DNA of 64,000 nucleotides. Origin: an uncultured virus (IMG/VR IMGVR_UViG_3300024518_002726). Taxonomy: Duplodnaviria > Heunggongvirae > Uroviricota > Caudoviricetes > Crassvirales. The translations under genes were made by a program, and so were the position numbers. Location of the stretch: the IMG/VR virus record IMGVR_UViG_3300024518_002726; one strand, 5' to 3'. The notes under the pieces are model-generated. The model saw only the letters and a program-made list of their open reading frames with translations. It searched no databases and had not been told where the DNA came from. Each line of letters opens with the position of its first letter. Position 1 is the stretch's first letter. This document shows positions 2,101 to 59,300 of the stretch, in pieces.

Positions 2101-2310
2101 ATGGCATACATGTTCGTAACGGGATACTGTTACGGATGTAAGAATATCTTCAGCTTCAACGCTGATTTTGTTCCAAGCATCAGGATCGAAGGGGAGAAGG
2201 AGCCAATCTGTGAAGAATGCATGAAACGTACAAACGTAGTCAGAGTGGAAAAAGGTCTTTCTCCACATCCCATTCACCCACAAGCATATGAGCCACAAAA
2301 GGTGGCTTAA
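2101..2310 (+). CDS. Small zinc-finger-like protein
   Basis: Two CxxC pairs, CYGC and CEEC. Confidence 0.7.
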   Translation: MAYMFVTGYCYGCKNIFSFNADFVPSIRIEGEKEPICEECMKRTNVVRVEKGLSPHPIHPQAYEPQKVA

Positions 2311-2338
2311 AAACGTTGCGAGATTCGTTAAGTTTTCC

Positions 2339-2367
2339 TTGACGGACTCGTATACATTTCTTACATT
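2339..2367 (+). promoter_or_regulatory. Housekeeping-sigma promoter upstream of the ncRNA cluster
   Basis: TTGACG-N17-TACATT, the same architecture as three other promoters in the window. Confidence 0.65.
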
Positions 2368-2368
2368 T

Positions 2369-2450
2369 CTCTTCCCCGTGTCACGGCTTACAATTAACTG
2401 AACCTGATTGTGGTTGCGTGTCCTGCAACTCGCTGTGATGCGGGGGAGAG
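2369..2450 (+). ncRNA. Small structured RNA: 19-bp closing stem with two inner hairpins
   Basis: CTCTTCCCCGTGTCACGGC/GCTGTGATGCGGGGGAGAG closes TTACAATTA/TGATTGTGG and GTTGC/GCAAC. Confidence 0.5.
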
Positions 2451-2460
2451 TTCTTTGAAT
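2449..2460 (+). promoter_or_regulatory. rrn-type boxA antitermination-like element
   Basis: AGTTCTTTGAAT directly ahead of a structured non-coding stretch. Confidence 0.45.
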
Positions 2461-2920
2461 TGATGATAATCTTGAGGTTGACTTAGTTCTTCCTTGAGTG
2501 TAGATATTCCAGAACAGGAAGGGTGGTGCCCTGAAATGTTCGTTCAGTGTGCAATCGCACCAGATGGCGCTGAATAGATGGGTAGTGTCCGTATAGGACA
2601 TTATCTTCATCGAAGGGCGTAGGTCCGTACTTAGACTTCTAAGGGAGTCTTCGCAGTATATCTCATCGAAGGGTGGGATGAGCCTACGAATGGCTTACCA
2701 AAAATGTATGGATATGGTAAGTTAAGTTTTTAGAGTAGCATCTCATCGCGTCATGCTTGAAGGCTAACGAAGCGGTGAGATATGCAGTTAGTCAACAAAT
2801 ATAAGAGGTGACACCATGCGGGGGACCTTAAAGCCCCCTTCTTGAAAGAGAAAGCATGATCTTGATGCGTAAGGTGAAATTGAGATGTTCCTTGGTCTAT
2901 GGAGAATAGTGAATAGACCT
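2461..2920 (+). ncRNA. Candidate structured ncRNA(s), family unknown
   Basis: No plus-strand ORF. Back-to-back helices such as GGGTAGTGTCC/GGACATTATCT, CGTAGGT/GCCTACG, GCTTACCA/TGGTAAGT, ATCTCATCGC/GCGGTGAGAT and GGTCTAT/ATAGACC. Confidence 0.5.
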
Positions 2921-2922
2921 GT

Positions 2923-3036
2923 AAGCCATGAAGTTAGAATAGTCGCAGTATGCTAGAGCGTCTTGGTGGTTATCGGTCGGTAACTATGTGTTGCGCAGCC
3001 GACAGTTCACGGGTTCGAATCCCGTCATGGCTTCAA
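2923..3036 (+). ncRNA. Oversized tRNA-like element (8-bp acceptor, 5-bp T-arm, non-canonical middle)
   Basis: AAGCCATG (2923-2930) pairs with CATGGCTT (3026-3033). Canonical T-arm ACGGG-TTCGAAT-CCCGT. The ~78-nt middle has no recognisable anticodon arm. Confidence 0.6.
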
Positions 3037-3139
3037 TGGTTGGGTATCACCGTAATTATAGCAGAATCTCCATAGTCAAAGCAGAATGCGGTTGCGACAA
3101 TAAGGAGAACCTGACCATTTATTCTTTAATAAACACAAT

Positions 3140-3550
3140 ATGAGAATAATGGAAGAACAAACAATTGAACTAACTGCAACAAGGGTAGATGAGATTCTCA
3201 TGGATTGTCTATCCAAAGAAGATGAGCTTAATGAGGATCTTGTTATAGTAGAGGGTGTCGTAAACAATTTTAGTTTCCATTCTGAGCGTCTCCAAGAACA
3301 TAAGGATGAAATCATTGCTCTACTTAGTCAACTCCCAACACAGTTTCAACAAAGTGAAGGTGGTGGGTGGTCGTTTCTCAATGCTTGTATGACCAAGGAT
3401 GGTACTCAATGGGGTGAACACAGAAATATGGAACACTTGTTTGTTCTTGGTTTAGGTATTGGTAAAGTAAGGTGGCAAATGCCTAAAGAGATGTGGAGTA
3501 TACTTCCCGGTGGGATGCCTTACGTTGTAGTATTAGATAAGTTGGGCTGA
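3140..3550 (+). CDS. Hypothetical phage protein
   Basis: 136-aa ORF with an A-rich start context and motif GGGWSFLNAC...QWGEH. Confidence 0.8.
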   Translation: MRIMEEQTIELTATRVDEILMDCLSKEDELNEDLVIVEGVVNNFSFHSERLQEHKDEIIALLSQLPTQFQQSEGGGWSFLNACMTKDGTQWGEHRNMEHLFVLGLGIGKVRWQMPKEMWSILPGGMPYVVVLDKLG

Positions 3551-3555
3551 GATCA

Positions 3556-3790
3556 TGGTGATTAGTGTTAACCAAGCTGATCCAAACAGGCTGTGGTCTC
3601 CGTTGACCTCCTCTATCTGAGAGTCTGATCAGATGGATGCGTAACGGGGTTGCCAATTATTGCAAGTGGTTGGCCTCTGTGTACATAACAAGACAGTACA
3701 CCAGATGGGAAGGACATCAGAATTATACTCTCTTCTTGTTTCAGACAAGGGTGATGGACCCTGAGTATCCGGCGAGAAGAGAACTTGCTA
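3556..3790 (+). ncRNA. Candidate structured ncRNA
   Basis: Consecutive helices CTCCGTT/AACGGGG, TCTATCTGA/TCAGATGGA, GCCAATTAT/GTGGTTGGC, TGTAC/GTACA and ATACTC/GAGTAT. Confidence 0.45.
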
Positions 3791-3796
3791 CACATT

Positions 3797-3808
3797 TGTT
3801 CTTTGAAA
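3797..3808 (+). promoter_or_regulatory. rrn-type boxA antitermination element
   Basis: TGTTCTTTGAAA immediately before the large structured RNA. Confidence 0.55.
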
Positions 3809-3809
3809 G

Positions 3810-4740
3810 ATTGTTTAGATATTACATCACTGTTAAAGGGGTGGTTAGAAGAAGTTTGGCTTGTCCATTCTAGAGATCTAACCCAATTGAACTGGAGACA
3901 GTGGATGGATCGGCGGCCTTCCCGTCGTTAGATAAACCGGGCAACCGGGATAAAGCAGAAGAGAGGTGAAATACTCGACTGCCGCCCTATGAAAACCAAC
4001 CTTGGGAAGTAATAGGACGTGAGTGAAAGGAGTTCTGTTATCGTAGAGTCGTACTAGCTAGGGCCTCACTGGTGTTAACTAAGTGACTGTACGATCTGTC
4101 CTATGCGGGGGCAGATTGAGAGGCGAAAGTCTCAATAAGAAGCGGAAGGGTTTCTGGTGTGATCAACTAGGGGGTTGTTAATGCTGGATTCACAAAGCAA
4201 TGATTCATCGTTACATCTGAAAAGGATGGGTGATAGGTACTTCGGTGCCGTAAAGTTGTAGAGAGTTAGTATCCCCCCAAGAGAAAGCAGGGAGGTGTTC
4301 GGTACGCTGTACCCAAAAGGTATGAAGCCGACTCTTCAGCACATCTGCCAACCCGCTAGTTTCGCTATAACGTGGGCTACGTCCGTAAATGTAGCACCAG
4401 ACCTGTAATCTGGATATTCATTAAGGATGAATAACATAACAAGCGAAAGACTGAAGGACTGTGCGCTAAAAGCCTACTTATCCATCTGAGATATGGTGGC
4501 TTCTAATGGTCGCAAGCCAGAGGAAGAAGGAAAGCTAGTAGTATCTCGTGGTGAGAGCGGTGGCTCTCTTTGTATCGACAGATGACATGGTACGAACGTA
4601 AGTAATTATCAGGCGTATGGTAAGGTCCTGTTGAAGCTCAGTAAAAGCTGTAGGTGATCTGATACTTCTAGTAATAGAAGTGTACATAGAGATGGTAACG
4701 TCTCTTAAAGTCAGATCAGGGTTTAAGTTAGTATCGCTTA
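3810..4740 (+). ncRNA. Giant structured ncRNA, GOLLD-like candidate
   Basis: About 930 nt with no credible ORF. Long-range helices GCGGG-GGCAGAT/ATCTGCC-AA-CCCGC (4105/4356) and AAGCGA/TCGCTT (4441/4739). GNRA loops at 3941, 4671 and 4695 and cUUCGg at 4241. The family assignment is from recalled resemblance only. Confidence 0.6.
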
Positions 4741-4766
4741 TTCCTACTTTTCTTGAAATTCCGAGT

Positions 4767-4867
4767 TGCCTCCCTTTATACAAGTGAGAGAGTAGTCTTC
4801 TGTGTCACGTCAGGTACATAACAGACCCTCTCTTGCGGACTAGGCTTGTGTAGGGGGAGGCATTTTT
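4767..4867 (+). ncRNA. 19-bp closing-stem RNA element ending in a U-tract (small RNA or terminator/switch)
   Basis: TGCCTCCCTTTATACAAGT/GCTTGTGTAGGGGGAGGCA followed by TTTTT. Confidence 0.5.
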
Positions 4868-4884
4868 AATTAAGAGGGTCCGTA

Positions 4885-5124
4885 ATGGAAACAATAGAAC
4901 AAGAAATGGAACTAAACGTAAGGATCAGAGGGAGTACCCGGAGAGTCGTTGTTGATGCTCTTGGACAGGTGTTTGAGATGGTGAAAGGTGGAGTAGATAT
5001 AACAACGATACAGAATGAGGAAAAGAAGTATGAAAGTACAGTGGAGTTGATACCCGTGGAGTTGTTAGAAGAGCTTGAGACTGATGGGTTTCCCTTTCCT
5101 GTACAGGAAGGAACATTTGGATAA
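4885..5124 (+). CDS. Hypothetical protein
   Basis: ORF on the coding strand directly after the ncRNA block. Confidence 0.65.
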   Translation: METIEQEMELNVRIRGSTRRVVVDALGQVFEMVKGGVDITTIQNEEKKYESTVELIPVELLEELETDGFPFPVQEGTFG

Positions 5125-45400: not shown

Positions 45401-47338
45401 ATCATTCTTCTTGCGAAACTGCTTTTCTTCTCTTCTTTCAAATTCTCTCATAACAAGAGGAAGAGCAAAAGGACTCATCAGGTTAATTAACTTCCTGTGA
45501 TACTCCTCAAGTATTTCCTCTCTAGAGTTGTTTGCCTCATTTATTATTCTATTTAGTCTTACTGCCTCATCCTTAGTAAAGATCTGTTGTACGAGAGTGT
45601 CTTCCTGTAAGAGAGATGCTATATCTTCAAGGATGGGTTGATAGGCATTGAGTTCTTTATGATAGAATTTCAAACGATGTGTAAGAAGTTGCTCCGCACC
45701 CTGATCTAGATCACTACGAATCCTGTTGAACCTCTTTTCAGCTTCTTTAAAGAAGTTGTGTAGTACTATCTCTGCCTGCTTCTGCTCTATTTTATCTTGT
45801 GTAACTTTTCTCTCTCCCGCTATATTACTTATTTCTCGTTGAAGCGATTCTAGATCATCATTATAATGTACTTGATTCCAACGAAGTTCATCTATTCTTT
45901 GATAGTAAACCTGAGCTACCCTCTTAGCAAGAGCCATACGTTTACTATCAGGAGGAACCTCTCCTTTTAGTTCTTCTTCACTAAAAGCTCTGGCATAAAG
46001 AGGATCTTCAAAAGCAATAGAGTTGCTATTAAGAACCTTAAATTCTTTTGCAAGATTCAAAAGTCTGGATATTTCGTCCTGACTAGAAAATGTTCCTCTA
46101 GTACTTCTAGTATCTAAGCCAAGAAGATTCTTCAGAGCTTCTATAAACTTCTGCCAGAGTGTTTTCTTCTCGTGTTTACCTTCTCTTGTTATATTGACAG
46201 CCTGATCTACAAACTTTCTGAAATTTGGGTTTGAAAAAAGCTCACTTGTAAACTCATGAATGGATCGAATACCATACAAATCCATATCATTAAGTTCTTC
46301 ATCCGTAAACTTACCACCCGTATCCTCCATAAAGGCCATAAGCTCACCATAGATAGTCTCTATCCTATTTCTAAACTCTCTTTCCGAAGTATTGAGTGCA
46401 TCAAGATCTGCACTTAGTACTGTCCTACTTATAGAGTGTACTATCTCATGAAACAGAACGGTGGCAAGTTTATCCTTTCTCTCTTGATCAGACATCTGAC
46501 TTTCATCCAGAAAGACTTCAAAGAACTCTATGCTCTCTCTGGATATCTGTATCTTAGATATAAAATTCCCATTACTAGTTCTATTAAACACCTGAGAAGC
46601 AAGTTTTCCCTTCTTGTTAACATATATCCTCTCTACGACTTGTACAGTAGATCTGTTAGAGAGTATCCGTCTCATCAGAGGACGGAGCTTCTTGAACATA
46701 AGGGATATCTCTTGAGATGGGTTTGAAGCAAGAACAGAGGCTATAACATCATCCAGAGATGCAGTATCTGATCCTTTAATTCCTAATATCCTCTCTAAAA
46801 TATCTGGACCCTTAACTGTGGTACCCAGAGTATAGCCATAATCAGAAAATAGGACAGAGAAATCATCTCCAAAGTCTCTCCTAAATAGATCTTCTATTGC
46901 AACCCATAGACTCTTATTTCTTTTCAGCTTAGATCTAAAGGCTCCAGAGGTTAATATGCGATTAAAAAAGTCCTCTGTAGATTTGGATTGTGATTCTCCT
47001 GTTACTTCAACCCTTGCTATTCTTCTGAAACTATCAAGAAGATCCATGAACCTCTGATTGTTTCTGAGAGCCTCTAGTCTTTCTTCAAATTCATCTCTAT
47101 ACGCTTCCTCTTTTACATCTTTAAGGTCTTCCAGATATTGATAGAAGTTCCACGTCTCTCCAGAATTATTCCAGAGACGACCATCCTCAGAGATCTCGGG
47201 TAATTCAGGGTCTCCTTTCCAATCCCTGAAAGTAGGAGAAGAAACTACTTCATTCAAAATATAGGCAGCATCTATCCCCCGTGTCCTATGGACAGTACGG
47301 AATGGTTCAAGCTTGAGATTTGGACAGAACTTGCTCAT
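42401..47338 (-). CDS. Large ejection/cargo-type virion protein with a zincin-like domain
   Basis: 1645 aa; LFHEIVHS...HEFTSELFSNP; hydrophobic segment near the C-terminus; directly downstream of the virion RNAP. Confidence 0.75.
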   Translation of the reverse strand: MSKFCPNLKLEPFRTVHRTRGIDAAYILNEVVSSPTFRDWKGDPELPEISEDGRLWNNSGETWNFYQYLEDLKDVKEEAYRDEFEERLEALRNNQRFMDLLDSFRRIARVEVTGESQSKSTEDFFNRILTSGAFRSKLKRNKSLWVAIEDLFRRDFGDDFSVLFSDYGYTLGTTVKGPDILERILGIKGSDTASLDDVIASVLASNPSQEISLMFKKLRPLMRRILSNRSTVQVVERIYVNKKGKLASQVFNRTSNGNFISKIQISRESIEFFEVFLDESQMSDQERKDKLATVLFHEIVHSISRTVLSADLDALNTSEREFRNRIETIYGELMAFMEDTGGKFTDEELNDMDLYGIRSIHEFTSELFSNPNFRKFVDQAVNITREGKHEKKTLWQKFIEALKNLLGLDTRSTRGTFSSQDEISRLLNLAKEFKVLNSNSIAFEDPLYARAFSEEELKGEVPPDSKRMALAKRVAQVYYQRIDELRWNQVHYNDDLESLQREISNIAGERKVTQDKIEQKQAEIVLHNFFKEAEKRFNRIRSDLDQGAEQLLTHRLKFYHKELNAYQPILEDIASLLQEDTLVQQIFTKDEAVRLNRIINEANNSREEILEEYHRKLINLMSPFALPLVMREFERREEKQFRKKNDHLTRAQASQLLEKHIPIYMAEHQSEIDEAVKKKIKDLLKYLPRDVSYLWRKTMPYHQSTDEIMQLSKLLLDKHAIDNTLREYWPLEKEFIEIFREFERDSGKVSNQKEFYKAILEVDSTGTFTQYFVQEYRMGEFRAIQRKLYAELDETIDSGKITELEAGKIRRLFFKDNFERRYTDEWYKKLDGIFGKPSKELEAINQRIANIIAVYHGENIDPQETSVDFLKSLKTLYEERNKILGKMGIKQRKALKAIADHPQTDEYQNALIKMQSDKKNGVITDDEYNLWYEATHVRMNPDNPKSSVPLPIFRKLVPKDLKRYSNSRYQEGKYTLKEKWLSRQYKDLMALPESNSTRKLYEYIMKRQAEFDRFRPIGRKLNGRLPGIRKKGWERTGEAQGAEGMWEMTKDELRRRKDDIEFGDPERLFRLDLEGETHRFIPIYYTGEIDEKHQSYDVATMFLANAEMTMRFQNLVEIAPDLEAARDLVKMRDVGTSIKRAGDEKNLAKAEANATEAFEVMLLDQLYGVHRQDKSNVKMWDTLQGYVSHLYLGAHAVASFQNLIYGQALNTVEAISGGYYKRKDLRKAFGQYSADMFEMWKDWTNATTDSRTHQLMLMFDAMKDFRGPRHVYSENTRLKRVIEPSTMLAFHTSGEHFIQGVNMYAMLNRVKIINENGEYINKDGTVVGSEKDAMTLADAYQKNDKGYVEINPMVKKIALDNRHMDWNEQNENFVRRRVHHMNTTIHGNYGHQAKSEIERYIMGRFALQLRKWMLQGARRRMAYSITKGKTSSDLPWWEKDITIADNELGDNFEGIFITALRFHRKLIRDMSWNPLTIMNGANRKAVVSAYRQLDDVEKASYLKSWFEVAVATVMSSFVVFILSHGFDLEEDDEEAKSWWRNVFYYTAYRMRIELALYYNPTALLDIVGSPAVVVSAAGALSEFGEQLLHDIWGVGTLQGMETYQTGSRAGQWKLRKKFQNLIPGVRAIQSLIHIKDKIAYSNLNR

Positions 47339-50300
47339 TCAAATAGATTCGTTTGTCCCGGTTCACATTTCTCTTTAGTTCGTCTAGCACTTTCCTCTAT
47401 CTCCTCAGAAGTTAGATTTGTAACATCTGTGAGATTTCCTCCATCGTCTGCTCCTATAACATCCTCTTCCAGTTCTGGATTTTGAGCGAATGAAACTTTC
47501 TTTCTAAGCTCATCATCCTGTACTGCTCTGGTTGGGACTTTTATTCTATAATATTCTCCACTTTCTGTATGATACTCAGTCTTTCTATCAGCATCTTGAT
47601 AGTATCCCAACTTCCTCACTTCTTTGTAAGTAGCTGTACCATTAGGACTCATAGTTGAAATTTGGTACAATCTCTCATTACTTACATCATAAAGGAAAGG
47701 TTTATACACAAGTTGATCGTCTTCCTTACTTGCCTCAAAGACCCCAGATATTAATCTTAGGTTTTGTGCTCCAACGATACCTATGGTAATAGTTTTTTCA
47801 TCTACTATCTCTACATCTTTCTCTTCTAACAGTTCTATCTCTGAGAGTTGACGCACAAAGTTCTTGTTGTTATAATTGTGAGCATAGACTTGAGCAAGAA
47901 CATCAGAGTGATAACTTGGATAGGTATCTACCCCTTTCATCTTCTCCTTGAAATAGTTATCAATTTGAATATGATCTCTAAACAACTGGGAGTTTAAAGT
48001 AACATCGTGGAAAGTAAAAGTACCTCTTCTTCCTCCACTGGCTACTATACTATAGTATCCTATGTCCTTTGCAAACTGTTCATCTTCTTCAAGCAACTCT
48101 TCAAATCCTGCAATAAGTAGCTGAAGTTTGTCACCATCTCTCTTATTCTGCTTTGCCCTTATAAACTGATATCCTTCAGCGGGAGTATGTACATCTAGAA
48201 AGTCAAGAAACTCATTTCTTGTAAGTTGTGTTTTAGCTGCTTCATCCCAAGCACCAGAATCCATCTCTTTCTGAAGCTCTACTCTTGTACTTTCTACTCT
48301 CTTATCTATGTATTCCTGTCTCTCATCTCCCTTGAGTTTCTTCTGATCTGCCTCTTGATTCAGAAAATGCTTTCTTATCCTCAGATTACGATTCAGTTTA
48401 TTTTTCTTTGCCCATCTTTGCTTTACAACCTTTAGCTGTTCAACCATGTTATTTGGACCTATAAACATATCCTCTATCTGAGAATCTGTTATTCCAGAGT
48501 AGTCCAAAAACTCCATCAACTGATAGGAGTATACAGAATTATGAATCTCTTGAATGGCCTCTTCATTTATACCTATGAAATCACCTTGAGTCTTTCGGAT
48601 ATCGCTCAGGGCAGACTCATAGAAAGGAGAGAGTTCAAGAAAGTATTGCTTCAGGAGCTTTAGAGAAAAGAGTACAGAGTTCCTATAGTACGTAGTTATC
48701 ATATTGTCAGGGTTCCTGAATATAGACTCAGCACCCTCAATATTTGTATTCTCAGAACTTAATACTTCATTTATCCTGTTCCTTGTAGCAACAAGACTTG
48801 CTATAGAGCTTCCCGGACCCAGAGTATCAACCCTTGTAGCTCGAATTAACATACCCAAAGTTCTAGACGTAGCTGACCAATTACTAAACTCTCTGATAAA
48901 CATCCTCTGAAAGAAGTGAAAATCAGATCCACTTTGATTATCAGGGTTTAAGTAATAGTCAAGCATATCTTCATTCATATGCTCTAACTTGGTCTTGAAA
49001 ACCTCCCCTTTCTCAAGAGCCTCCTTTACTGGCTTTGGTATTCTTAGTCTTGGTCTCCTTATTGTATCTTTCTCCTTATTATATAGAGCTTCTCTTTCGG
49101 AATCTAAAAATCCAGCAGGTACTCCTAGATCATCAGTCTCAGAAAGCTCTGGGAAAATAGAGATGAGTTCTTCGTTTCTGGCATCTTGTATCTTTTTAAC
49201 AGTTCCTTTTTCCAGATTTTCTACTACTATTCTCGCACTGGGACTTTTTCTTGCATAAAACTCACTCTGTCCCATAGCTAATTGTTGGGAGAGTTCTTCT
49301 ATGATAGGCTGCTTGAGAAACTTAAATACCTTTCTATAGGGTATACCAGCACGTATCATAGTAAGAGCAACCTGTGCAGTAAACTCATTCATCCCGAGAT
49401 AGTGCAGATAGGGATTCTTTACAGCATCAAGTGCTCCATTAAGTATACCGGAGAGAACATCTACAATTATATACTCCTTATCAGTATCAAATATGTTACT
49501 AAAGGTGAAACCACCTTTGATATTAACTCCAGTATCTTGAAGAAGAGCGTGATTTACGATATGTACAGCAGTCTGACTAATCAAACCTTTAGAGTCACCA
49601 AAGATATCGGTCTGATTCAACTGGTTGGTAATAGTAAAGAAGTCAGGCATATTAGACTTCTCTCTACCAGTTATTGCTTCAATCTCATCTGCAAGTTCAC
49701 CTAACTTTATAGATTCAATAGGAGTAACAGAGTGAAGATATACCGCAGGATGAGAGAGAAGTCCGTGGTACATCTCAATAATCCTATTAGTAATAGCTCC
49801 CTTACCGTTTTGCCGTTCTGGAGACCATCTTATAAATTGCTTTATTGATGAAAGACCTCTTCTCTTAGCAAAGTCAGCAATTACTCTATCTTGCTCAAAC
49901 TTATCTTTTGCTCTCCGTAGTCTAGCTCGATCTTGATTGGTACCCTTGGACTTCATGTGACCCAAAACATACCTTCGGTATCTTCCTAATGCAGCAGCAG
50001 TAGGAGTCTTACCATCTTCTTTCAGAGAAGGAGCGTTATCCATCTTGTGATAACGAATCTCTCCTTTGCTGTTTATATAAAACTCAGGCAACATCAAGTA
50101 CATCTTATCTATGTCAAAGTCAGAACCAGTTTTAACTGTGACTTCATCATACATAATAATACTATCTCCCATCTCTGGTGGTAGAAATCCTACCACTCTA
50201 GCAGAGTCGATGGAAAATCTTGCCTGACCGGGCACACGATATGTAATTACACGAGATAGTTCTGGATTCTCATTAAAGAACCTTCTTACTTCCTCTTGAT

Positions 50301-53300
50301 TATAGGTACCATCTTCATTGTATATATTTTCTGGAAGCTTATCTGCAAACCAGCTAGGAAGAAGAATATCTCCCGGCTTATAAATCTGAGATCCTACAGC
50401 TATTGAAGGGAGTTTCTTTTTTAAGGTCTCTTCATAGACAGTACGTATCGCATTAGCTTGCTTTTCATTTATCTTAAGTTGACCTCTGGGTCCTCTACCT
50501 CTTGTGCCAATAAGAGCAGCATTATTAACAAGGGTAGGAGTAGAATCCATCCTGTTAAATTTTCCTTCCTCATAGTTCCAAGTGAACCAAGAATTTTGGG
50601 TATCTACGAATACAAATACTGCTTTACCGTTGTCAATAGCCATCTGCACTCCCCACCCAGTTCCACCCTGCACTGCTGTAGTTCCGTCAAAGTCATTGGC
50701 AATAGCATATACAGCCTTTGCATTTTTAATCTGGAACCAGTTTCTACGGAGGAGATCGTTAGTATACCTATTAGGTTCTCCTTTATTGGGACCAGACCTA
50801 ATGACCATAGGATAGTCTCTATTTGGAAGAGACTCATAAGCTTTGGCTACGTGTTCATCAGCTTCCTCAAGCTGTTCATCGGTCAATACAATAAGATTCT
50901 TTCTTCCTTGCCTTCTCATAGAAGCTTCATGAACTTCTCCTATGATGTTGCCCATCTTAATACCATACTCCTGACCTAGATCAAACCAGAGAGTATCCGA
51001 TCCACTCGCAGCACCAGAGAAAGCAGTTATATTGTCAAGCGTACTGGATTTATCTATCTGACCTGTTTCACTCACACGTCTTATCTTATAGACATATAGG
51101 GATCGTTTACCCTCTATAAAGTCACGAGTATGCTTGAACTTTGCATTCTCTTTTGCATCTTCTAAACTATCAAATCCCTCTCTCTTAGCCCAATCCTCCT
51201 GTCTTTCACTAGAGAGCTTGGTAAAGTCTTCTACTTTCCTTCCACTAATATGAACTACAGTTCCATCTGGAAGTTTGTAATATCCTTGTTGTAAGAACTT
51301 TGTTCTTGTGGTAACATCTTTACGACCAGACTTTATCTTCTTTATGTTATCCGGTTGCATCGCTAGAGCAGGAGCGTCTTCAAAATCCTTTCCTACTAAC
51401 TGAGGTGGAAGCAGATCAGGATACATGGAGTAGAGGGTAGCCTTATCCTCCTGTGATAGCTTAGAGAATCCCCTGAAGCCTGCAATCCCGGCTCCTGAGA
51501 TCTGTATCATTGAACCGCCAAAAGAGTTCGATTCAACAGAGTAACGACGTATTACGCCAAGCACGATATGCTGAATGCTTCGCTTCATCGCGTGGGTAGA
51601 GAAGGGAACCTTTATTTCCCCTGACTCATCAAGATCAAACATCTCAATGACAGAGTTTGGAAGTCCTTCTCTAGCTGCACGTCTCTTCAACGTAGAAACA
51701 AAAGCACCGTGCCTACTAACTTCGAAATGACTACCTCTATCTATTATACCCCACTTATCTCTAAGAGTCTCCATCTCAATATCACTAAGAGCAGAGTAAA
51801 GATGATTCATCTCCTTCTTCCAGTCAGAAGCAGACATGTCCTTACCAGAGACTTCAAACAGAAAATAGTCAGCTATTGCAGCAAACACATTTTTACGTTG
51901 CTGCGTGCCTATTTTTCTGTTCTTCATTCCCTTATAGGGAGTTTCGCTCTGTAGTTTCCAGTATTCATTTTGAAGAACTATAGGAGCAAGAGATTGATCA
52001 CCACTTATAAAACCTTGAAGTGTTCTTAATCCAGATGCTCCTACCTTTATACCAGATTCATAGATAGCTTCACCTATTCCTTCTTCATTCATACGAGCAA
52101 GGAGGTTCTCCATAACAGTATTTCCCTTGACCAGAGAGGGAAGAAGTACGGCTTGAGAGTATTTGAGATAAACAGGAACCAGATGCTCTCCACGTTTTTC
52201 AAGATTCCAGTATACTCCCTTTAAAGGCTGGAGAAATAACCCGTGGGCTTTTGGATCTATAGGCTTTCCTGCTTTAAGATCTTCAAATGGTGCATCATAT
52301 TCAGGTCTCCATCTTCCTATACCAACCATTATCTCTTTGAATCTATCAAGAGTAATGTAAGCTTGAGCATCTGTGGTATTTACTTCTCTATATGGAGCTA
52401 CAATTTCTTCTGCTCTTTTCTCAATTATTGCTTCATCATCATATCCCCATTGTTCTCTCAATATCTGTTTGATCCTTCCCTTGAACTTACTTGTGCCAAG
52501 GAACTCACTCTGAGCTATAATATCTCTAAGAACAATGACTTTAAAGGTTGGACTTATATCTTCTTTATAGACTATAGGATGAATGCCGGAAACCATAATA
52601 GCACCAGCTCTCTTTCCTATATCCGCAACGTCTTTGTAGAAAGCCCAATCTCCATGATTGAGATACATCTGTTCTACGTTAGCTACAAGAGAATTACTCA
52701 AAGCATCTACTACAGCCAACATCTCAGATATGCGTGAACCTTCGCCTCTAAATTTACGGTACCAATCAACAAAAGGTTTGTGAATAAACTTGTTACGGAC
52801 CTCATAGAAACCTTCATTTTCGGTTTCCATCATGAGTTCCATGTCTACAAGATTATCAAAATCGGTTTTGAGTCTCCACCTTAACCAGTTATTTGCATAT
52901 GGATTTAGAAGTTTTTCTTCTTCGCTAGTCAGAGAAGATTTTCTTGCTAAAAACTTTCCTTCCTCATCACTTTCTACTTCTCCTATTCTAACAAGAGATC
53001 TTCCAAAGTGATTCTCATACAGAACTTCAAACAGATCAGGATCACTATTGATAAGTATTTCTGGAGATAGTTCGGGGAACATAAGCATTTTGAGTCCATT
53101 TGCTTCAGTCAGCAAACGTGCTCTATACTGTTTTATTCCCTCTCCTTCTTCCATAGCAACATTGCCGTGGAAAGTTGAGATGAGTTCATCAGGATGTAGA
53201 GAGTTTATTTCATCATAAACAACACGGGTTCTCATCAGTTCAGAGATCATAAACTTCCGAACTATCTTTTGGATATTACTGTGGAACTTTACTCTCAGAG

Positions 53301-56300
53301 GATCTATTTGAGCATTCTCGTTATACTCAAGACTTTCTACTGTTCTTACAGGTACATATCCATGACCAAAGAACTGGTCCAATCTATCTGACATATTCAG
53401 AAGCGGGAAGTGAGTCATATTATTATAACCCTCACTTCCAACTACTCCTTTTAACATCAAGTTCAGAATAGTAACTGTCTTATCCGTCTTGGATAGTTCT
53501 TCAAAAGTCTTACCTTTATCTCCTCTAATAGATCTCGTATTTCTAACATCAAGACCAAGAACTAGTCTCAAAGTCTTTACACTTCTACCAGCCCTTCCAC
53601 TTCTTTTAACACGAAGCAGATTGTTGTAAAATGTACTTCCTATTCTCGTGAAGAAGGATGACTCATAATCTCTAAGATGTTCACTAGGATTCTGAGATAT
53701 CTGTGCCCAACGTCTTTGAAGCCATCTTTGAGGACCATATATCCACCTTACATTCTTTCCAGCTACAGTTACTGTGGTATCATTTCCCTGACCATCTACA
53801 AATATCTTAGCATCTGCCAGTTCTGTAAAAGCCACAGACCAAAGAGGAGAGTGTTCTCTTTTGGATAGATCTACATCTCCTGCTTCTTCTGCTTCTACAA
53901 GATTTACAAGTCTTTCAAAAGTCGTAGTTCCTCTAGCTCTTCTTGGAGATATAGAACGCTGAATAAGATCATCTAGAAATGCCTGAAAGTTATCAAACTT
54001 GCTATTATTTATCCCTCTACCTACAGATATAGCAAAGTTTATAGCTTGAAACTCTATGTTTATTCCTATAGAGTTAAATGCTTCCTTCAAAAGATCCATC
54101 TGTTCATCTACAAATGCATCAGGAGGAAGAGCATCTAGCTGTGTAATCCTATTTATAGCTTCATAGTCAGTAAGACTTTTGTATATCTTATTTACATCTT
54201 CTATAAAGCTTCTTATCAGGTGTGGATTAGTCTTCACACCCATACTTTCCATATTAGATGCCCACTCAGCTATTATAGCACGAGCACCTGCTTGTCGTCT
54301 ACTGGAAAAGTCAGCACCTTCTAAACCAGATTTCTTCCCGCGTTGATCAAATATTGGATTCCAGAGAAAACTTCTGAACTCAGAGTCATTTAATTGGAAA
54401 GCAAGAGCCAACTGCTTTAGCAGTCTAGGCTTCTTCTTCATCTGATTTATAACTATGATCAGATATTCAAGATTTGGATCAAAGGTTTTTATGCGTTCGA
54501 GCTTGGCCTCCATAGACTCTATCTCACCAAGCTCTCTATTTATAGGAACTCCTCCCTCAAGAAGAGATTCAAGTCTACCCCAAACACTTGCAAAGGGTAT
54601 GAACTTAGGCATACCAAAATAGCGACCATTTTTAACCTTTAGAGAAGGAAGACCTTTACTTAGAGCAGTAGCAGGAACAGTTTCCATCTCAGGCAACATA
54701 GCGAGAGCTAGCTTTATACTAGATCTTGCTCTTTCCTTCTGGCTATATTCATATGGCTTTCTGGTATCAAAGTCCTTTCCTTGCTTTCTACGTTCTTCTT
54801 CTTCAGCATCTTCTATAAGAGAAAGTTCAAGATCATTCGACTCTACTCCTAATCTTTCAAAGAATAGTTTCAGATCTTCTTGAACTGCCCTCCAGACAGC
54901 AGGGTCTTTTAGTATTTGTTCTAACTTTTCAGCTACTTCTCTATTTCCTTTCTGTCTTTGCTTTACAATTACAGAAGTGAGGTATTTCTTTGCACTATCG
55001 AAATTAGCATGTGTTATATGCTCAAGTTCTGGAAGTCTACCTTTAGCTTTCTTTCTATCCTCAGCTATACTATAGTCCAAACCAGAATACTTAACAGCTA
55101 CATAGGCAAGACTATTTCTAAGTTCCAGTAATTCTGGATCACTGAAATTATCTATCTTAAGATAAGAGTAGTCATGATAGTACGTACTTCTATATACAGG
55201 CTTTGGTTTATACGCATAGACTCCAAGTTCTATGTTCCTGAATAGATCTTCAATAGAAACTCTATTATGTCTCAGAGCTTGTATAAATCTTATTATTCTC
55301 TCAAAGAATCTCTTAACTTTTGCTCCGAAGGAGTTATCTACCTCTTGATCAATAGTAGCAAATCTGAGTTCTTGAGATAGAAATTCTTCAACTTCTCTAT
55401 CAGACAGAGAATCTAAAGCTGGAAACTTTTCTCTAGCTTCATCTATTATCTCCGCACGTTGCCTATCATCTAGGTAAGAATTAAATACAGCGTGAAACGC
55501 CTCATGATAAGCTGTACCCGGAATACCCATTTTACTCAAGGTAATAACACCACTCTTGAATAAACCGTAGGCTTCAGTTCCGTGTAGATTTACCAGATCT
55601 TCTATAACGTCAACTGATATATAAGGAAGTCTTTTCTTTAACCAAGCTACTTCTCTCTGAATATCTATTCTTCCTTCTTGGTCCCTCTCAACCTGAGTAG
55701 TTCCTCTTACAAGGAAGAGTTCATCTGTAGGTTCATCTGCAACATCGTCTATCCAAGAATCATCTTCTTTACCCTCTTCCTGTACTGCCTCTTCCATAAG
55801 GACAGGTTCAGCAGTAGCACGAGCATCTTTAGTTTCTTCTGTAAGATCCTCCCACAAGAATCTGATATATTCATTCCAAGTAGCTATAGGATTAGGAATG
55901 ACCCAAAGATTTCCTGCCTCATCTCTAGTTGCCAGAAGAGTACTGACTTGTGGAGAGGGTTCAATAATAGGTTTACTCTTAAAAAACTCAGTCTCATCAA
56001 TTCCTACTATACTATAGTCTAGATTAAAACTTTCTCTAGGTGGAGAAACAGCCTTCTTTACTACTTCCTCTCGAACCTCAGCCTCCGTAACCCTTCCCTC
56101 AAGACTAAAGGGATCATCAGCAGAAATGACCCATTCTGCCTCTATATCAGTAAGAGTTCTTCCTGTAAGTAGTCTATAGGCTTGACGTAGAGAATCAAGA
56201 ACTGGTTCAGCTCTCTCATCACTCATCTCTACGATTTGATCTGCAAGCTCGTCTACAGTAAGATCTCTACCCGGATTATCTCTATTGTAGTTCTCAACCC

Positions 56301-59300
56301 ATACATCTATGGGTATAGCAAATCTTCCACTTCCTGCTACACCAAGACCGGGTGCAAATTTAGGACCTAGATACTTGAGTAGACCGCTGGAGGATAATTT
56401 ATCATATGCTCTTTGGAAACTATCCCAAGTAACTAAACCATATGCAGCAAAAGAAGACTTAAGTGGATGATTAGAAAACTCGTCATCTAACAACTGTCTG
56501 ACAGCAACATAAGCCTGAGCAATCTCTTGAGGGTTCTTACTCCTCTCAGATACTAACTTACCGAGATTCCTTGGTTCTGCGTTTCCTCCTTCGTCAAAAT
56601 AATTCTCAGCATCCTCTCTAGAAATACCAGTAAGGACATTTTCCGTGTCCATATCGGCTTTACTATATGAGACAAGATTGCTAAAGAGGTATTCATCGCT
56701 ATAGCTATAAAGTCTATTGTCTGCAAGAGCATCTCTAAATACAGGAGAACCATCTTTATCATTCCCTGTAAATACAAGTTCTCTTACTACCTCTTCATCT
56801 TCTCCTCTTTCGTTTCTACGAATTACAGTAAGTTCTATTCTGTCTCCTGTAAAACCAACAGTAGCTGTATCTCTTCTCTTCTTGAGAATCCCATCCCACG
56901 CACTTCTAGATTGACTATCTTGATCAGAAGTATCACTGAGATCAAGGTCTGTATATGTTACAGAGACTACAGGTTCTATATATGTTCCTAGATGATCCTC
57001 AATATTATCATCAGTAATTATACTACTACCTCCTTCAAGATATACCTGTGGATGATAGAAGAGTCCTTGAATGGGAGGACCACCTCTTTCATCTCCTTCT
57101 AGCTGAAGATCAGTAGTCAGTACAGGATCATCTCCTTTAGTTATAAGATCTCTGTACTTTGTATCCTCATTTATTTCCTCTCCAAGAAAAGTAAATGTGT
57201 CATTAGATTGAGTTGCTTCACTGTTAAGCATCTCAACAATATTGTCATCACCTTCGTTATCAAGAAACTTCTTCTTTACAGCACGTACTTTATGTGTCAT
57301 CAAATGTTCAATGACATCTTGCTTAACAGGACGTAAACTAGAGATTCTATAGTTTTGATCTCCTATGGTTACTGTAGTCCTACCAAGTTGACCTTTTTTG
57401 AAGTTAATCTTAAGGTTTCTGGCAATATTATGTGGAGCTTCCCTGCTCAGAAAGGGATAGGTAAGAAGATCCAGAGCAGCAAGAGGAGTAATACCTTCTA
57501 CAATAATGTCTCCTTTTTCATTAACTATTGGCTTCTGATTGGGATTCTGAGTTGTATCCCCTATGATCTTATCGAATTGAAAAGTAAGTCCGTGGATAAG
57601 AAGATCATATATAAGTTCAGCTTCTTGTCTATTGAGGTGTCTTTGCTTGAGTTTTACGGGGAACAGTTTCCCTATAGTATCTCGAAGAACAGCATAGACA
57701 GAACCAGAAGATCTGATTACACTGTCTGGATCATTGGAGTCCATCAATATAGGATCTCCATTCTCATCCCGATAAACTTGATTAATCGGTTTTGGAATTG
57801 CTATATAATGACCTGTTGCATCTACAAGTCTACCATTTGGAAGTACAATTCCAAGTAGATAGTGATCTTGATTTACAACTGTTAGTAATTCATCAAGAGT
57901 AGACTCCTTTTCTACATTAGGAATTAACTTCCCTCTAGTCTCATAGGCACGAACGTATACATTTTCATTTTTGGCAAGTCTTTCGTAAGCAGCAGCTTTG
58001 AGAGATGCTGTCCCTACTTCTTTATGTTCTATTCTAAGAGCAGGATAATCCTTATCTTTAAGATTTTGAGTAAGACTACTATCTCGTATGAAGGTAGATA
58101 CAATATTTCCATTCTTGTCTTTCATAGGGTTCGTAGTACCCTCTTCAAGACCATGAAATTTCATAGGGAAGTCTATAGGATCTACAGCTACTTCATTTCC
58201 TTCTTCATTTACAAAGTAATAAGAAACTATAGTCTCTATTCCACCAACAAGTTTTGTATGAGCACCAATAGGCGCTCTATTCATATAGAGTTGAAATTGT
58301 TCGTCTGTTAATCTGTGTCCTTTAGGATTTTCAGGAGTGCCAACAATCTCTTCTTCTGTAGGGATATACAGACGAACAGGACTTCCATTGAATACTGCTG
58401 AGGTTTGGGCTTCAAGATGTGCAGCAAATCCATAGTTTGCATCTCCCGGAATCAGTCTATGGTATCCAGCCATAGCTTCTGTGTGCTCCATTACACTAAA
58501 AGCAGAAACTCTATCTGTATTGAAGTCATTGAAAATGTATGCGCCTTCTACATCAGCACCATCAGGATCTGCTTCTTGACCATCAGTAGTATCGAAAAAT
58601 TCATCCTGAGTAACTCTGCTATCAGAGTCTTCTGCTTCATCATCACCAGCAGGTCTGTCTTCTGTAGTAACTGTACCTGCCTTTCTTCTCTCCTCCTCTT
58701 GTTTAGCTACAGCTTCTGTATCCTTAATCGTCTTTTCAAGATCTCTAAGGTGTTGTTCTCCAGCCTTGTTGTCATCAAAAGGAAGTCCATCTGATACATT
58801 TAAATCAAAATCTTCCTCATCTTCCTCCTCCTCTTCTTCAATTTCTCCTTCTGTTTTAGGAGCATCTTCCTTATCTACTTTCTCTCCTGTAGCCTCTTCG
58901 TATATCTTCTTTGCCTTATCAGAGAGATCAACATCTTCATCACCTGAAATCTCAGCACCTTCAGCCGATTCAGCCTCATCTTTTGTTCTCTTCTCTTCTT
59001 CTTTTGCCTCTTCAAAAGCCTCTTCAGAAGCTTGTTCTGCTTCCTTTGAGATCTTTTCTTCCTCTACCTTCTTCTTTGATCGCCTCTTCCAAAATTTAGC
59101 TCTTTCAACTACAGTTTCTTTCTTATCTTTTCTACTTTCTTTCTCTTTCTCTTCCTGCTTCTCCCTCTTAACTTCTTTATCTTTCTCTCTAAGTGCGTTC
59201 TGTCCTTCTGTAGATTCTAGATAAGCTAGTTGCTCATTAGTATTATCTAAGAAAATCTCAATTCCAGAAACAAGAGCATCTGCTTTTTTCCAAGAACTAT

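Follow-up and report, generated by a model that had tools for sequence, protein, structure and literature searches.

A predicted, far-diverged GOLLD RNA behind a boxA-like motif in a distantly crAss-like phage

A 64,000-nucleotide (nt) stretch of DNA from an uncultured virus (IMG/VR record IMGVR_UViG_3300024518_002726; the whole stretch is called the window) very probably carries the gene for a phage RNA of the GOLLD family that has diverged far from the ordinary members, with both domains of the family recognizable in its sequence. The best explanation overall, with a probability of about 0.8, is a divergent GOLLD RNA of approximately 900 to 950 nt that is read left to right, is led by a boxA motif and would be made and caged as proposed below. 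A divergent GOLLD was one of two outcomes offered by the original prediction, a reading of the letters alone. It is supported by a full-length match to the Rfam GOLLD model RF02032 (E = 4.4e-27, with a score below the gathering cut-off), a match to a model of the 5' core called R1 (E = 3.7e-5) and 5' landmarks that are collinear with those of the family. The other outcome, a new giant RNA class, is not needed. The covariance-model matches are the decisive evidence, not the folding energy.

The two GOLLD domains

RF02032 was used to locate the 3' domain, and the 5' half was tested separately because the Rfam model does not cover the 5' domain. The features of the two domains are:

4290-4740, plus strand: GOLLD conserved 3' domain, RF02032 positions 1-416 of 416, 102.3 bits, E = 4.4e-27
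4350-4440, plus strand: variable linker, J13/15-like, a 37-nt insertion in the Rfam alignment with three small hairpins in the minimum free energy (MFE) fold
4527-4611, plus strand: rebuilt P20-P21 region, with 1/9 pairs in the P20-like helices and hairpins present at the L21 positions
4656-4717, plus strand: three-way junction with two GUAA-capped hairpins, closing helix 7/7 pairs, hairpins 8/8 and 6/6 pairs
3825-4289, plus strand: GOLLD 5' domain, elements read from the sequence, fold resolved in part only
3825-3832/3899-3907, plus strand: P1-like helix, closes 3825-3907
3843-3849/3877-3883, plus strand: hairpin of the 5' domain, read from the sequence
3906-4042, plus strand: match to R1, built from the 5' cores of ordinary GOLLDs, at 26.1 bits and E = 3.7e-5 over model positions 1-116 of 116
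3912-3917/3981-3986, plus strand: long-range helix of the 5' core, read from the sequence
3937-3948, plus strand: GNRA hairpin of the 5' core, read from the sequence
3986-3990/4012-4016, plus strand: hairpin with a polymorphic loop, read from the sequence
4116-4141, plus strand: UUGA-GNRA hairpin-AAUAAGAA, read from the sequence

The RF02032 match was found on the plus strand only. When the model structure was projected on the window, 80 of 98 pairs formed, 9 were mismatched and 9 were lost to deletions, so 80 of the 89 pairs with both partners present still form. Approximately 43 pairs are compatible yet unlike the consensus by a hand count of the ':' marks of Infernal, and 13 of the 15 helices are kept. 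P17 forms 10/10 pairs, which include GUGCGCU/GGCGUAU, and AGGACU/GGUCCU is a lineage-specific lengthening of this helix. P19 is kept with a CGCAA loop (4511-5), the P13-like helix 4290-4298/4341-4349 has 8/9 pairs and the 3' hairpin of the family consensus lies at 4725-4727/4737-4739. Conservation in the Rfam alignment is highest at the three-way junction. The L14-type CAAAA loop (4314-4318), aligned to UCAAAAG of the model, is also kept; in the solved cage this loop makes an inter-subunit A-minor contact (PMC12286853). No tRNA was found in the linker with Rfam or ARAGORN. The covariance-model search proposed with the original prediction returned GOLLD at 4290-4740, and ROOL had no match in 2200-5000 even at E values up to 10. 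ROOL (RF03087) is a large ornate cage-forming phage RNA often found near tRNAs (PMC5737381; PMC12286853); it shares this general character with GOLLD, and its published fold is unrelated.

Ordinary GOLLD loci for comparison came from a junction-motif scan of viral contigs that returned 120 loci, 20 of which were passed to Rfam. In 32 of the 120 the match was not 50-51 nt long; five of them were GOLLD and the rest were chance matches. R1 was built on an alignment of 5' cores from 47 ordinary loci, no two of them identical; compensatory changes occur in 11 of the 24 pairs of the consensus fold. R1 gave one match only when both strands of the 64-kb window were searched. The blastn program aligned window positions 3893-3955 to four ordinary loci (best L032, E = 3e-6), and the motif in common is GUCGUUA-AUAAAC, a hairpin and then GAUAAAG. 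The hairpin stem covaries (CCGG/CCGG, CTGG/CCAG, CTAG/CTAG and CCAC/GTGG) while the GNRA loop is kept. The long-range core helix is also kept with a wholly changed sequence, from GCCUA/UAGGC and its covarying forms to GGCGGC/GCCGCC as judged by eye. Measured from the 3' junction motif, the UUGA-hairpin-AAUAAGAA element is at -547. Of 54 ordinary loci, 46 have it between -561 and -520, with another stem and loop. The 54 are those members of L011-L090 whose motif has the usual length of 50-51 nt and whose upstream sequence reaches 1000 nt or more. Two hairpins that follow GAUAAAG in ordinary cores, before the long-range helix, are missing from the window. Both GOLLD domains are taken to be present because the R1 match and three further collinear 5' landmarks accompany the 3' match to RF02032.

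The original prediction rested on helices and loops picked out by eye, and all seven of its complementary pairs exist in the sequence. GAGAUA/UAUCUC is present at 4488-4493/4542-4547, and full pairing was counted for GCGGG/CCCGC (5/5), GGCAGAU/AUCUGCC (7/7), AAGCGA/UCGCUU (6/6), AGGACU/GGUCCU (6/6), GUGCGCU/GGCGUAU (7/7) and UGAUCUGAU/GUCAGAUCA (9/9). The last three agree with the family fold, as the P17 extension, P17 and a junction stem, respectively. The named loops were likewise located: GUAA at 4671-4674 and 4695-4698, GCAA at 3941-4, CGCAA at 4511-5 and UUCG at 4241-4. The two long-range closing helices fared differently. Their pairs exist, but both compete with helices of the family consensus and neither appears in the unconstrained MFE of 3885-4745. 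The 12-bp helix 4105-4116/4343-4356 takes the 3' strand of the P13-like helix, and AAGCGA/UCGCUU (4441-4446/4734-4739) takes the conserved junction AAGCGAAAG together with the 3' hairpin. Forced folds of the alternatives cost about the same (-267.6 versus -269.7 kcal/mol), so energy cannot choose between them. These two longest-range helices of the original prediction are probably wrong.

The claim of approximately 930 nt without a credible ORF (open reading frame) is true, and the gene-free span is bigger: it covers 3551-4884 (1334 nt) within a plus-strand gene row in the ORF list. The ORFs inside the span are all at most 82 amino acids (aa) long. The 78-aa ORF 3637-3873 has no Pfam or PHROG match, and the 82-aa minus-strand ORF 4535-4783 has no Pfam match. 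The gene row resumes with ORF 4885-5124, the next credible ORF on the 3' side. The plus-strand fold had an MFE of -294.9 against -269.4 ± 10.2 for shuffled sequences (z = -2.49), and 0/20 shuffles were as good; the minus strand gave z = -1.21, with 2/20 shuffles as good. The plus strand thus beats its shuffles, as the original prediction had asked, and the signal from its folding energy alone is modest. The proposed preference for the plus strand agrees with these z values and with the strand of the GOLLD model match.

Solved GOLLDs provide the structural frame for these comparisons. The env-38 RNA (833 nt) forms a 14-mer cage and the Streptococcus agalactiae RNA (700 nt) a 12-mer, and assembly into cages needs no protein (PMC12286853; PMC12990946). 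The linker faces the cage interior and at times carries a tRNA, and expression rises at lysis (PMC12286853; PMC12990946). The window RNA resembles the family in its two domains, in P13/14, P17, P18, P19, the three-way junction and the 3' hairpin, in the L14 CAAAA loop and the variable linker after P14, in the 5'-core GNRA hairpin flanked by AUAAAC and GAUAAAG, and in its phage origin. It is unlike the family in scoring about a third of the usual value, in its unformed P20, changed L21a and L21b loops and missing pair of 5'-core hairpins, in the longer P17, in the lack of an adjacent tRNA array or tmRNA, and in its crAss-like carrier.

Hairpins exist at the L21a and L21b positions of the P20-P21 region (4554-4567 and 4571-4587), and in env-38 these loops are the inter-subunit kissing loops of bridges B8 and B9. 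P21b is also missing from the S. agalactiae GOLLD (PMC12990946), so this feature is not universal. One rival explanation is that the RNA belongs to a sister class that shares the 3' junction, P17 and P19 with GOLLD and has a different middle part, with a distinct quaternary structure or none at all. The score below gathering, the absent P20 helices with both L21 loops changed, the 5' core lacking the two hairpins between GAUAAAG and the long-range helix, and the failure of pattern scans to find intermediate forms are all consistent with this view. However, the family model is matched end to end with an E value of 4.4e-27, far below the E < 1e-5 used in the GOLLD census (PMC12286853), and the order of both domains and of four landmarks follows that of the GOLLD family. 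Which P elements are present differs even among solved GOLLDs, and different copy numbers accompany these differences (PMC12286853; PMC12990946). A sister class is improbable on this evidence, and membership in the GOLLD family is retained. A GOLLD copy with rebuilt inter-subunit loops would be a natural experiment on what sets the copy number of the cage.

The boxA leader and the upstream unit

The original prediction placed a boxA before the RNA, and this holds as a conserved motif: it is found in 53 of the 54 ordinary loci and has look-alikes in rRNA leaders. The leader features are:

3798-3808, plus strand: boxA-like motif GUUCUUUGAAA, approximately 17 nt before the first GOLLD helix
3729-3782, plus strand: leader hairpin, 3729-3740 paired with 3771-3782 in the MFE of 3700-3830, z only -1.27

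The core GTTCTTTGA of the motif is exact in 49 of the 54 ordinary loci and present with at most one mismatch in 53. The ordinary boxA lies -723 to -943 from the 3' junction motif and the window boxA at -865. The order of elements in ordinary leaders is promoter, hairpin, boxA and, approximately 10 nt later, the first GOLLD helix. A TTG-N18-22-TAnnTTTG element, whose TAnnTTTG part we take to be the Bacteroidota promoter box, was found within 120 nt upstream of boxA in 45/52 ordinary loci and in 0/52 control segments. These counts indicate that the boxA motif at 3798 is real and part of the GOLLD family leader. The core of the window leader hairpin, GGGTGATGG..GAGTATCCGG, resembles the GGTGATGAAAGATACTCGG hairpin that precedes boxA in several ordinary loci. 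In the 120 nt upstream of boxA in L011-L090, the hairpins sit between promoter and boxA and are either short (e.g. ATCGGAAACGTCCGAT) or longer with the core GGTGATGAAAGATACTCGG, and the window hairpin resembles the longer type. The UGAUGA-like core of the longer type may be a protein-binding kink. Some ordinary loci (L013, L036, L063 and others) have a second boxA-like GTTCTTTAA approximately 240 nt upstream of the main boxA, which hints at another small RNA before GOLLD.

Published boxA consensus sequences are GYTCTTTAANA (PMC5725501), UGCUCUUUAACA for Escherichia coli and AUGAUCUUUGAAA for Bacillus subtilis (PMC13753749). The window sequence GTTCTTTGAAA agrees with GYTCTTTAANA at 10/11 positions, is intermediate between the E. 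coli and B. subtilis sequences and has UCUUUGAAA in common with the latter. A pattern scan of genome contigs (120 loci, none with GOLLD landmarks) gave access to Flavobacteriia genomes. The 16S leaders of Gelidibacter sediminis, Chryseobacterium luteum and Phaeocystidibacter luteus (3/3) contain a TAnnTTTG-type box, a hairpin and a boxA look-alike (GTTCATTAA, GTTCTTTAA or GATCATTGA), and 81-142 nt separate the look-alike from the 16S gene. In these rRNA leaders (L286, L287 and L288) such promoter-hairpin-boxA-like units come singly or as a tandem pair ahead of 16S, and GTTCATTAA occurs twice in the rRNA leader of the Gelidibacter genome. GOLLD leaders appear to copy rRNA leaders, because the same promoter-hairpin-boxA layout is found in ordinary loci and 16S leaders. 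Like the rRNA boxA of the E. coli and B. subtilis Nus antitermination systems, the window motif fits the consensus, follows a hairpin and lies in the leader of a long untranslated transcript. Unlike them, it is found in a phage, before a putative cage-forming RNA and without a host-type promoter of its own. By analogy, it is somewhat favoured that the motif works as a Nus site, with putative NusB/NusE binding and antitermination.

Exact GTTCTTTGA occurs five times in the window against a chance expectation of 0.88, and two of the five copies (plus strand) head gene-free stretches. The second of these stretches covers 2311-3139 (plus strand) and contains a promoter-like site and an exact boxA at 2450. 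The features outside the GOLLD stretch are:

2339-2369, plus strand: promoter-like site TTG-N20-TACATTTC, candidate start of the whole non-coding unit
2450-2460, plus strand: first boxA-like motif GTTCTTTGAAT, 81 nt after the promoter-like site
2461-3033, plus strand: structured RNA region with no family assigned, ends in a tRNA-like element (2924-3033)
3140-3550, plus strand: protein gene with no function assigned (phrog_26039, E = 1.3e-37), sits between the two RNA regions
4767-4867, plus strand: long hairpin followed by a U run, terminator-like; the fold of 4741-4884 has -52.6 kcal/mol, z = -3.97, with 0/200 shuffles as good

The promoter-like site at 2339 has the TTG-N18-22-TAnnTTTG layout of ordinary leaders with 7/8 letters of the second box, and a promoter scan lists TTGACG-17-TACATT at the same site. 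GOLLD is probably co-transcribed from this site because no host-type promoter lies within the 120 nt before its own boxA. We infer a single unit from approximately 2375 to approximately 4867 with two boxA sites. An rRNA operon carries boxA twice, in the leader and in the spacer, and the window unit is similar in having boxA twice in one unit.

The fold of 2440-3045 gave z = -4.19 on the plus strand and z = -2.75 on the minus strand. Its tRNA-like element has perfect acceptor and T arms, long insertions and aberrant D and anticodon regions, and scores 28.1 bits with the Rfam tRNA model, for which the cut-off is 29. Rfam found nothing in 2461-3033 beyond this borderline match, and ARAGORN at default settings found nothing there. 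An intron-bearing tRNA-Asn (2858-3034) that ARAGORN proposed at relaxed settings was unconvincing and was rejected. A tmRNA was also rejected: neither Rfam nor ARAGORN gave a tmRNA match, and both acceptor strands lie within 110 nt. The protein encoded at 3140-3550 has ten relatives in viral contigs (43-55% identity) and no Pfam family, and a Pfam search of eight neighbouring ORFs gave no match.

Downstream of GOLLD, TTTTT at 4863-4867 follows the long hairpin, which escaped a simple terminator scan on account of its long loop. The nearest viral record (G001) ends at window position 4876 and a metagenome contig (L158) at 5014, so that both assemblies break after the hairpin 4767-4862. The hairpin bears on a second rival, in which the RNA is a long cis-acting leader that controls the genes from 4885 on and is not a free-standing RNA. 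The stretch does lie directly upstream of a plus-strand gene run, and boxA, which is also reported upstream of suhB and CRISPR operons, can regulate protein genes (PMC5725501). However, the GOLLD family is known as stand-alone RNAs, and here the long hairpin and U run separate the RNA from the next gene. A cis-acting leader is very improbable, and the reading as a free-standing GOLLD is kept.

Proposed synthesis and caging of the RNA

In the proposed mechanism, host RNA polymerase would start at the 2339 site and transcribe a unit that includes the first boxA, the structured RNA with its tRNA-like end, one small gene and GOLLD. NusB/NusE would bind boxA on the nascent RNA, and the boxA complex would resist Rho and help the long untranslated RNA to fold, as in rRNA operons. 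Copies of the RNA would then join into a closed cage made of RNA alone, as is the case for the solved GOLLDs. With its rebuilt P20-P21 contacts, this cage may have another number of subunits. During lytic growth, the cage would act on translation, with tRNAs or ribosomes as the components that it holds or shields. By analogy with the solved family members, cage formation by the window RNA is reasonably probable, and the translation-linked role is a tentative proposal. A broader idea is speculative: the phage may imitate an rRNA operon, with a promoter-like site, two boxA motifs and two large stable RNAs (one of approximately 0.6 kb with a tRNA-like handle, and GOLLD). GOLLD cages in general might then be products of the host Nus-factor transcription and folding machinery, and the crAss-branch cage might have a different copy number.

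Several results weigh against the explanation as a boxA-led, cage-forming GOLLD. The score of 102.3 bits is below the RF02032 gathering score of 150, which is a curator's cut-off and not a structural feature; at gathering thresholds, Rfam did not list GOLLD in the window and its sole match was one tRNA. The window copy is far from ordinary GOLLDs because all 20 ordinary loci passed to Rfam scored 277.6-327.7 bits, approximately three times as high. The two P20-like helices fail to form (1/9 pairs), and the loops at the L21a and L21b positions are GGUG and CGACAG instead of the CGCAAG and GGCA of ordinary GOLLDs. No diverged relatives of the lineage were found in the pattern scans and other searches described below, and hence no within-lineage covariation, the only other copy being 99% identical. 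No tRNA array adjoins the window GOLLD. No host-type promoter was found in the 120 nt before the boxA at 3798, unlike in 45/52 ordinary loci. The rRNA-leader look-alikes were found at up to two mismatches, a level expected by chance approximately 0.7 times per 500 nt, so it is the context that carries the argument. Early genes of crAss-like phages are read by a virion RNA polymerase that the phage itself supplies, and if this enzyme read the region boxA would have no partner.

Structures of GOLLD cages are solved and their function is not known. A literature search returned no account of a GOLLD with boxA or of cage production in cells; earlier descriptions of the family could already show the motif. 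Among the GOLLD papers listed, none was on crAss-like phages as judged by title. The presence of boxA in 53/54 loci and in the diverged copy raises the direct question of whether the making and folding of GOLLD are under the control of Nus factors and Rho. A marine crAss-like carrier would also widen the GOLLD host range beyond large tRNA-rich phages.

Carrier phage, natural variants and relatives

The carrier is judged to be a crAss-like phage, as originally proposed, and a distant one, from its DNA polymerase, a 1645-aa protein and a giant ORF. Its DNA polymerase shares 27-30% identity with those of Crassvirales; the best matches of the enzyme (cr52_1, cr10_1 and cr4_1) have 27-29% identity over 98-99% of the query. 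The 1645-aa protein matches an RNA-polymerase-associated protein of the Cellulophaga phage phi14:2 (Crassvirales), and its 61 matching records are mostly Bacteroides crAss phages and phi14:2. An ORF of 4636 aa lies beside the 1645-aa and 978-aa ORFs (47335-61245, minus strand), a giant-protein block typical of crAss-like phages. The tested neighbours of the 4636-aa ORF had no PHROG match at 1e-5. Five ordinary GOLLD contigs (approximately 100 kb, 34-40% complete by CheckV) had no match to the 1645-aa crAss-type protein.

The stretch was found in eight runs labelled seawater metagenome from eight studies, three of the runs being possible sources, and no RNA run was among the listed runs. Four runs (X5-X8) were aligned, with contigs that cover parts of the stretch only, and identity was at least 99% in 9 of 11 pieces. 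The variant 4311 A>G changes an A-U to a G-U and keeps the pair, and 4307 C>T repairs a C.A mismatch to U-A. A 16-nt deletion with two substitutions at 3991-4009 (L158 and runs X5 and X6) falls in the loop of the hairpin 3986-3990/4012-4016. The natural variants appear to fit the family fold. They also bear on a third rival, a decaying GOLLD relic that no longer works. The low score, the loss of one region, the lack of a tRNA array beside it and the lack of a listed RNA run would suit a relic. Yet 80/89 model pairs with both partners still form, the conserved loops and junction motifs are kept, the leader and terminator-like hairpin are intact, and two substitutions in other runs, only n = 2, keep or improve pairing. 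A relic is very improbable, and a divergent GOLLD is preferred.

Relatives were sought by several routes. A metagenome scan gave three loci: L158 is the same phage (99% identical) and the other two are without GOLLD. Window-specific patterns gave 0 matches in viral contigs, the pattern TACTTCNNGTAANNGAAGTG gave 26 loci of which none had GOLLD landmarks, and a 5'-domain pattern gave 65 loci with 0 R1 matches at E values up to 0.01. A DNA comparison of 3551-4884 with the phage collection was negative, as was an nhmmer search with the window stretch, and the nearest viral record (98% identical), which ends at window position 4876, contains no GOLLD. In ten loci that surround relatives of the protein encoded at 3140-3550, neither an Rfam match at E values up to 0.01 nor a boxA was found, and five loci around MazG relatives had no GOLLD; R1 gave only one match in these 15 synteny loci, with E = 0.74. 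No GOLLD was found in five crAss-like genomes from GenBank, phi14:2, cr52_1, cr10_1, cr4_1 and a 55-kb phage (0/5 at E values up to 0.01), in a search whose positive control gave 2/2 and whose first-pass reach for a 100-bit variant is unproven.

The nearest tRNA to the window GOLLD is a tRNA-Met 5.6 kb downstream, and the tRNA-like element (28.1 bits) lies 0.8 kb upstream. Among the 20 ordinary loci, seven have a tmRNA gene within 1.5 kb (L014, L027, L032 and L074; L011, L039 and L065). In the first four of these, the tmRNA lies directly upstream of the GOLLD promoter (about 150-600), and most also have tRNA arrays.

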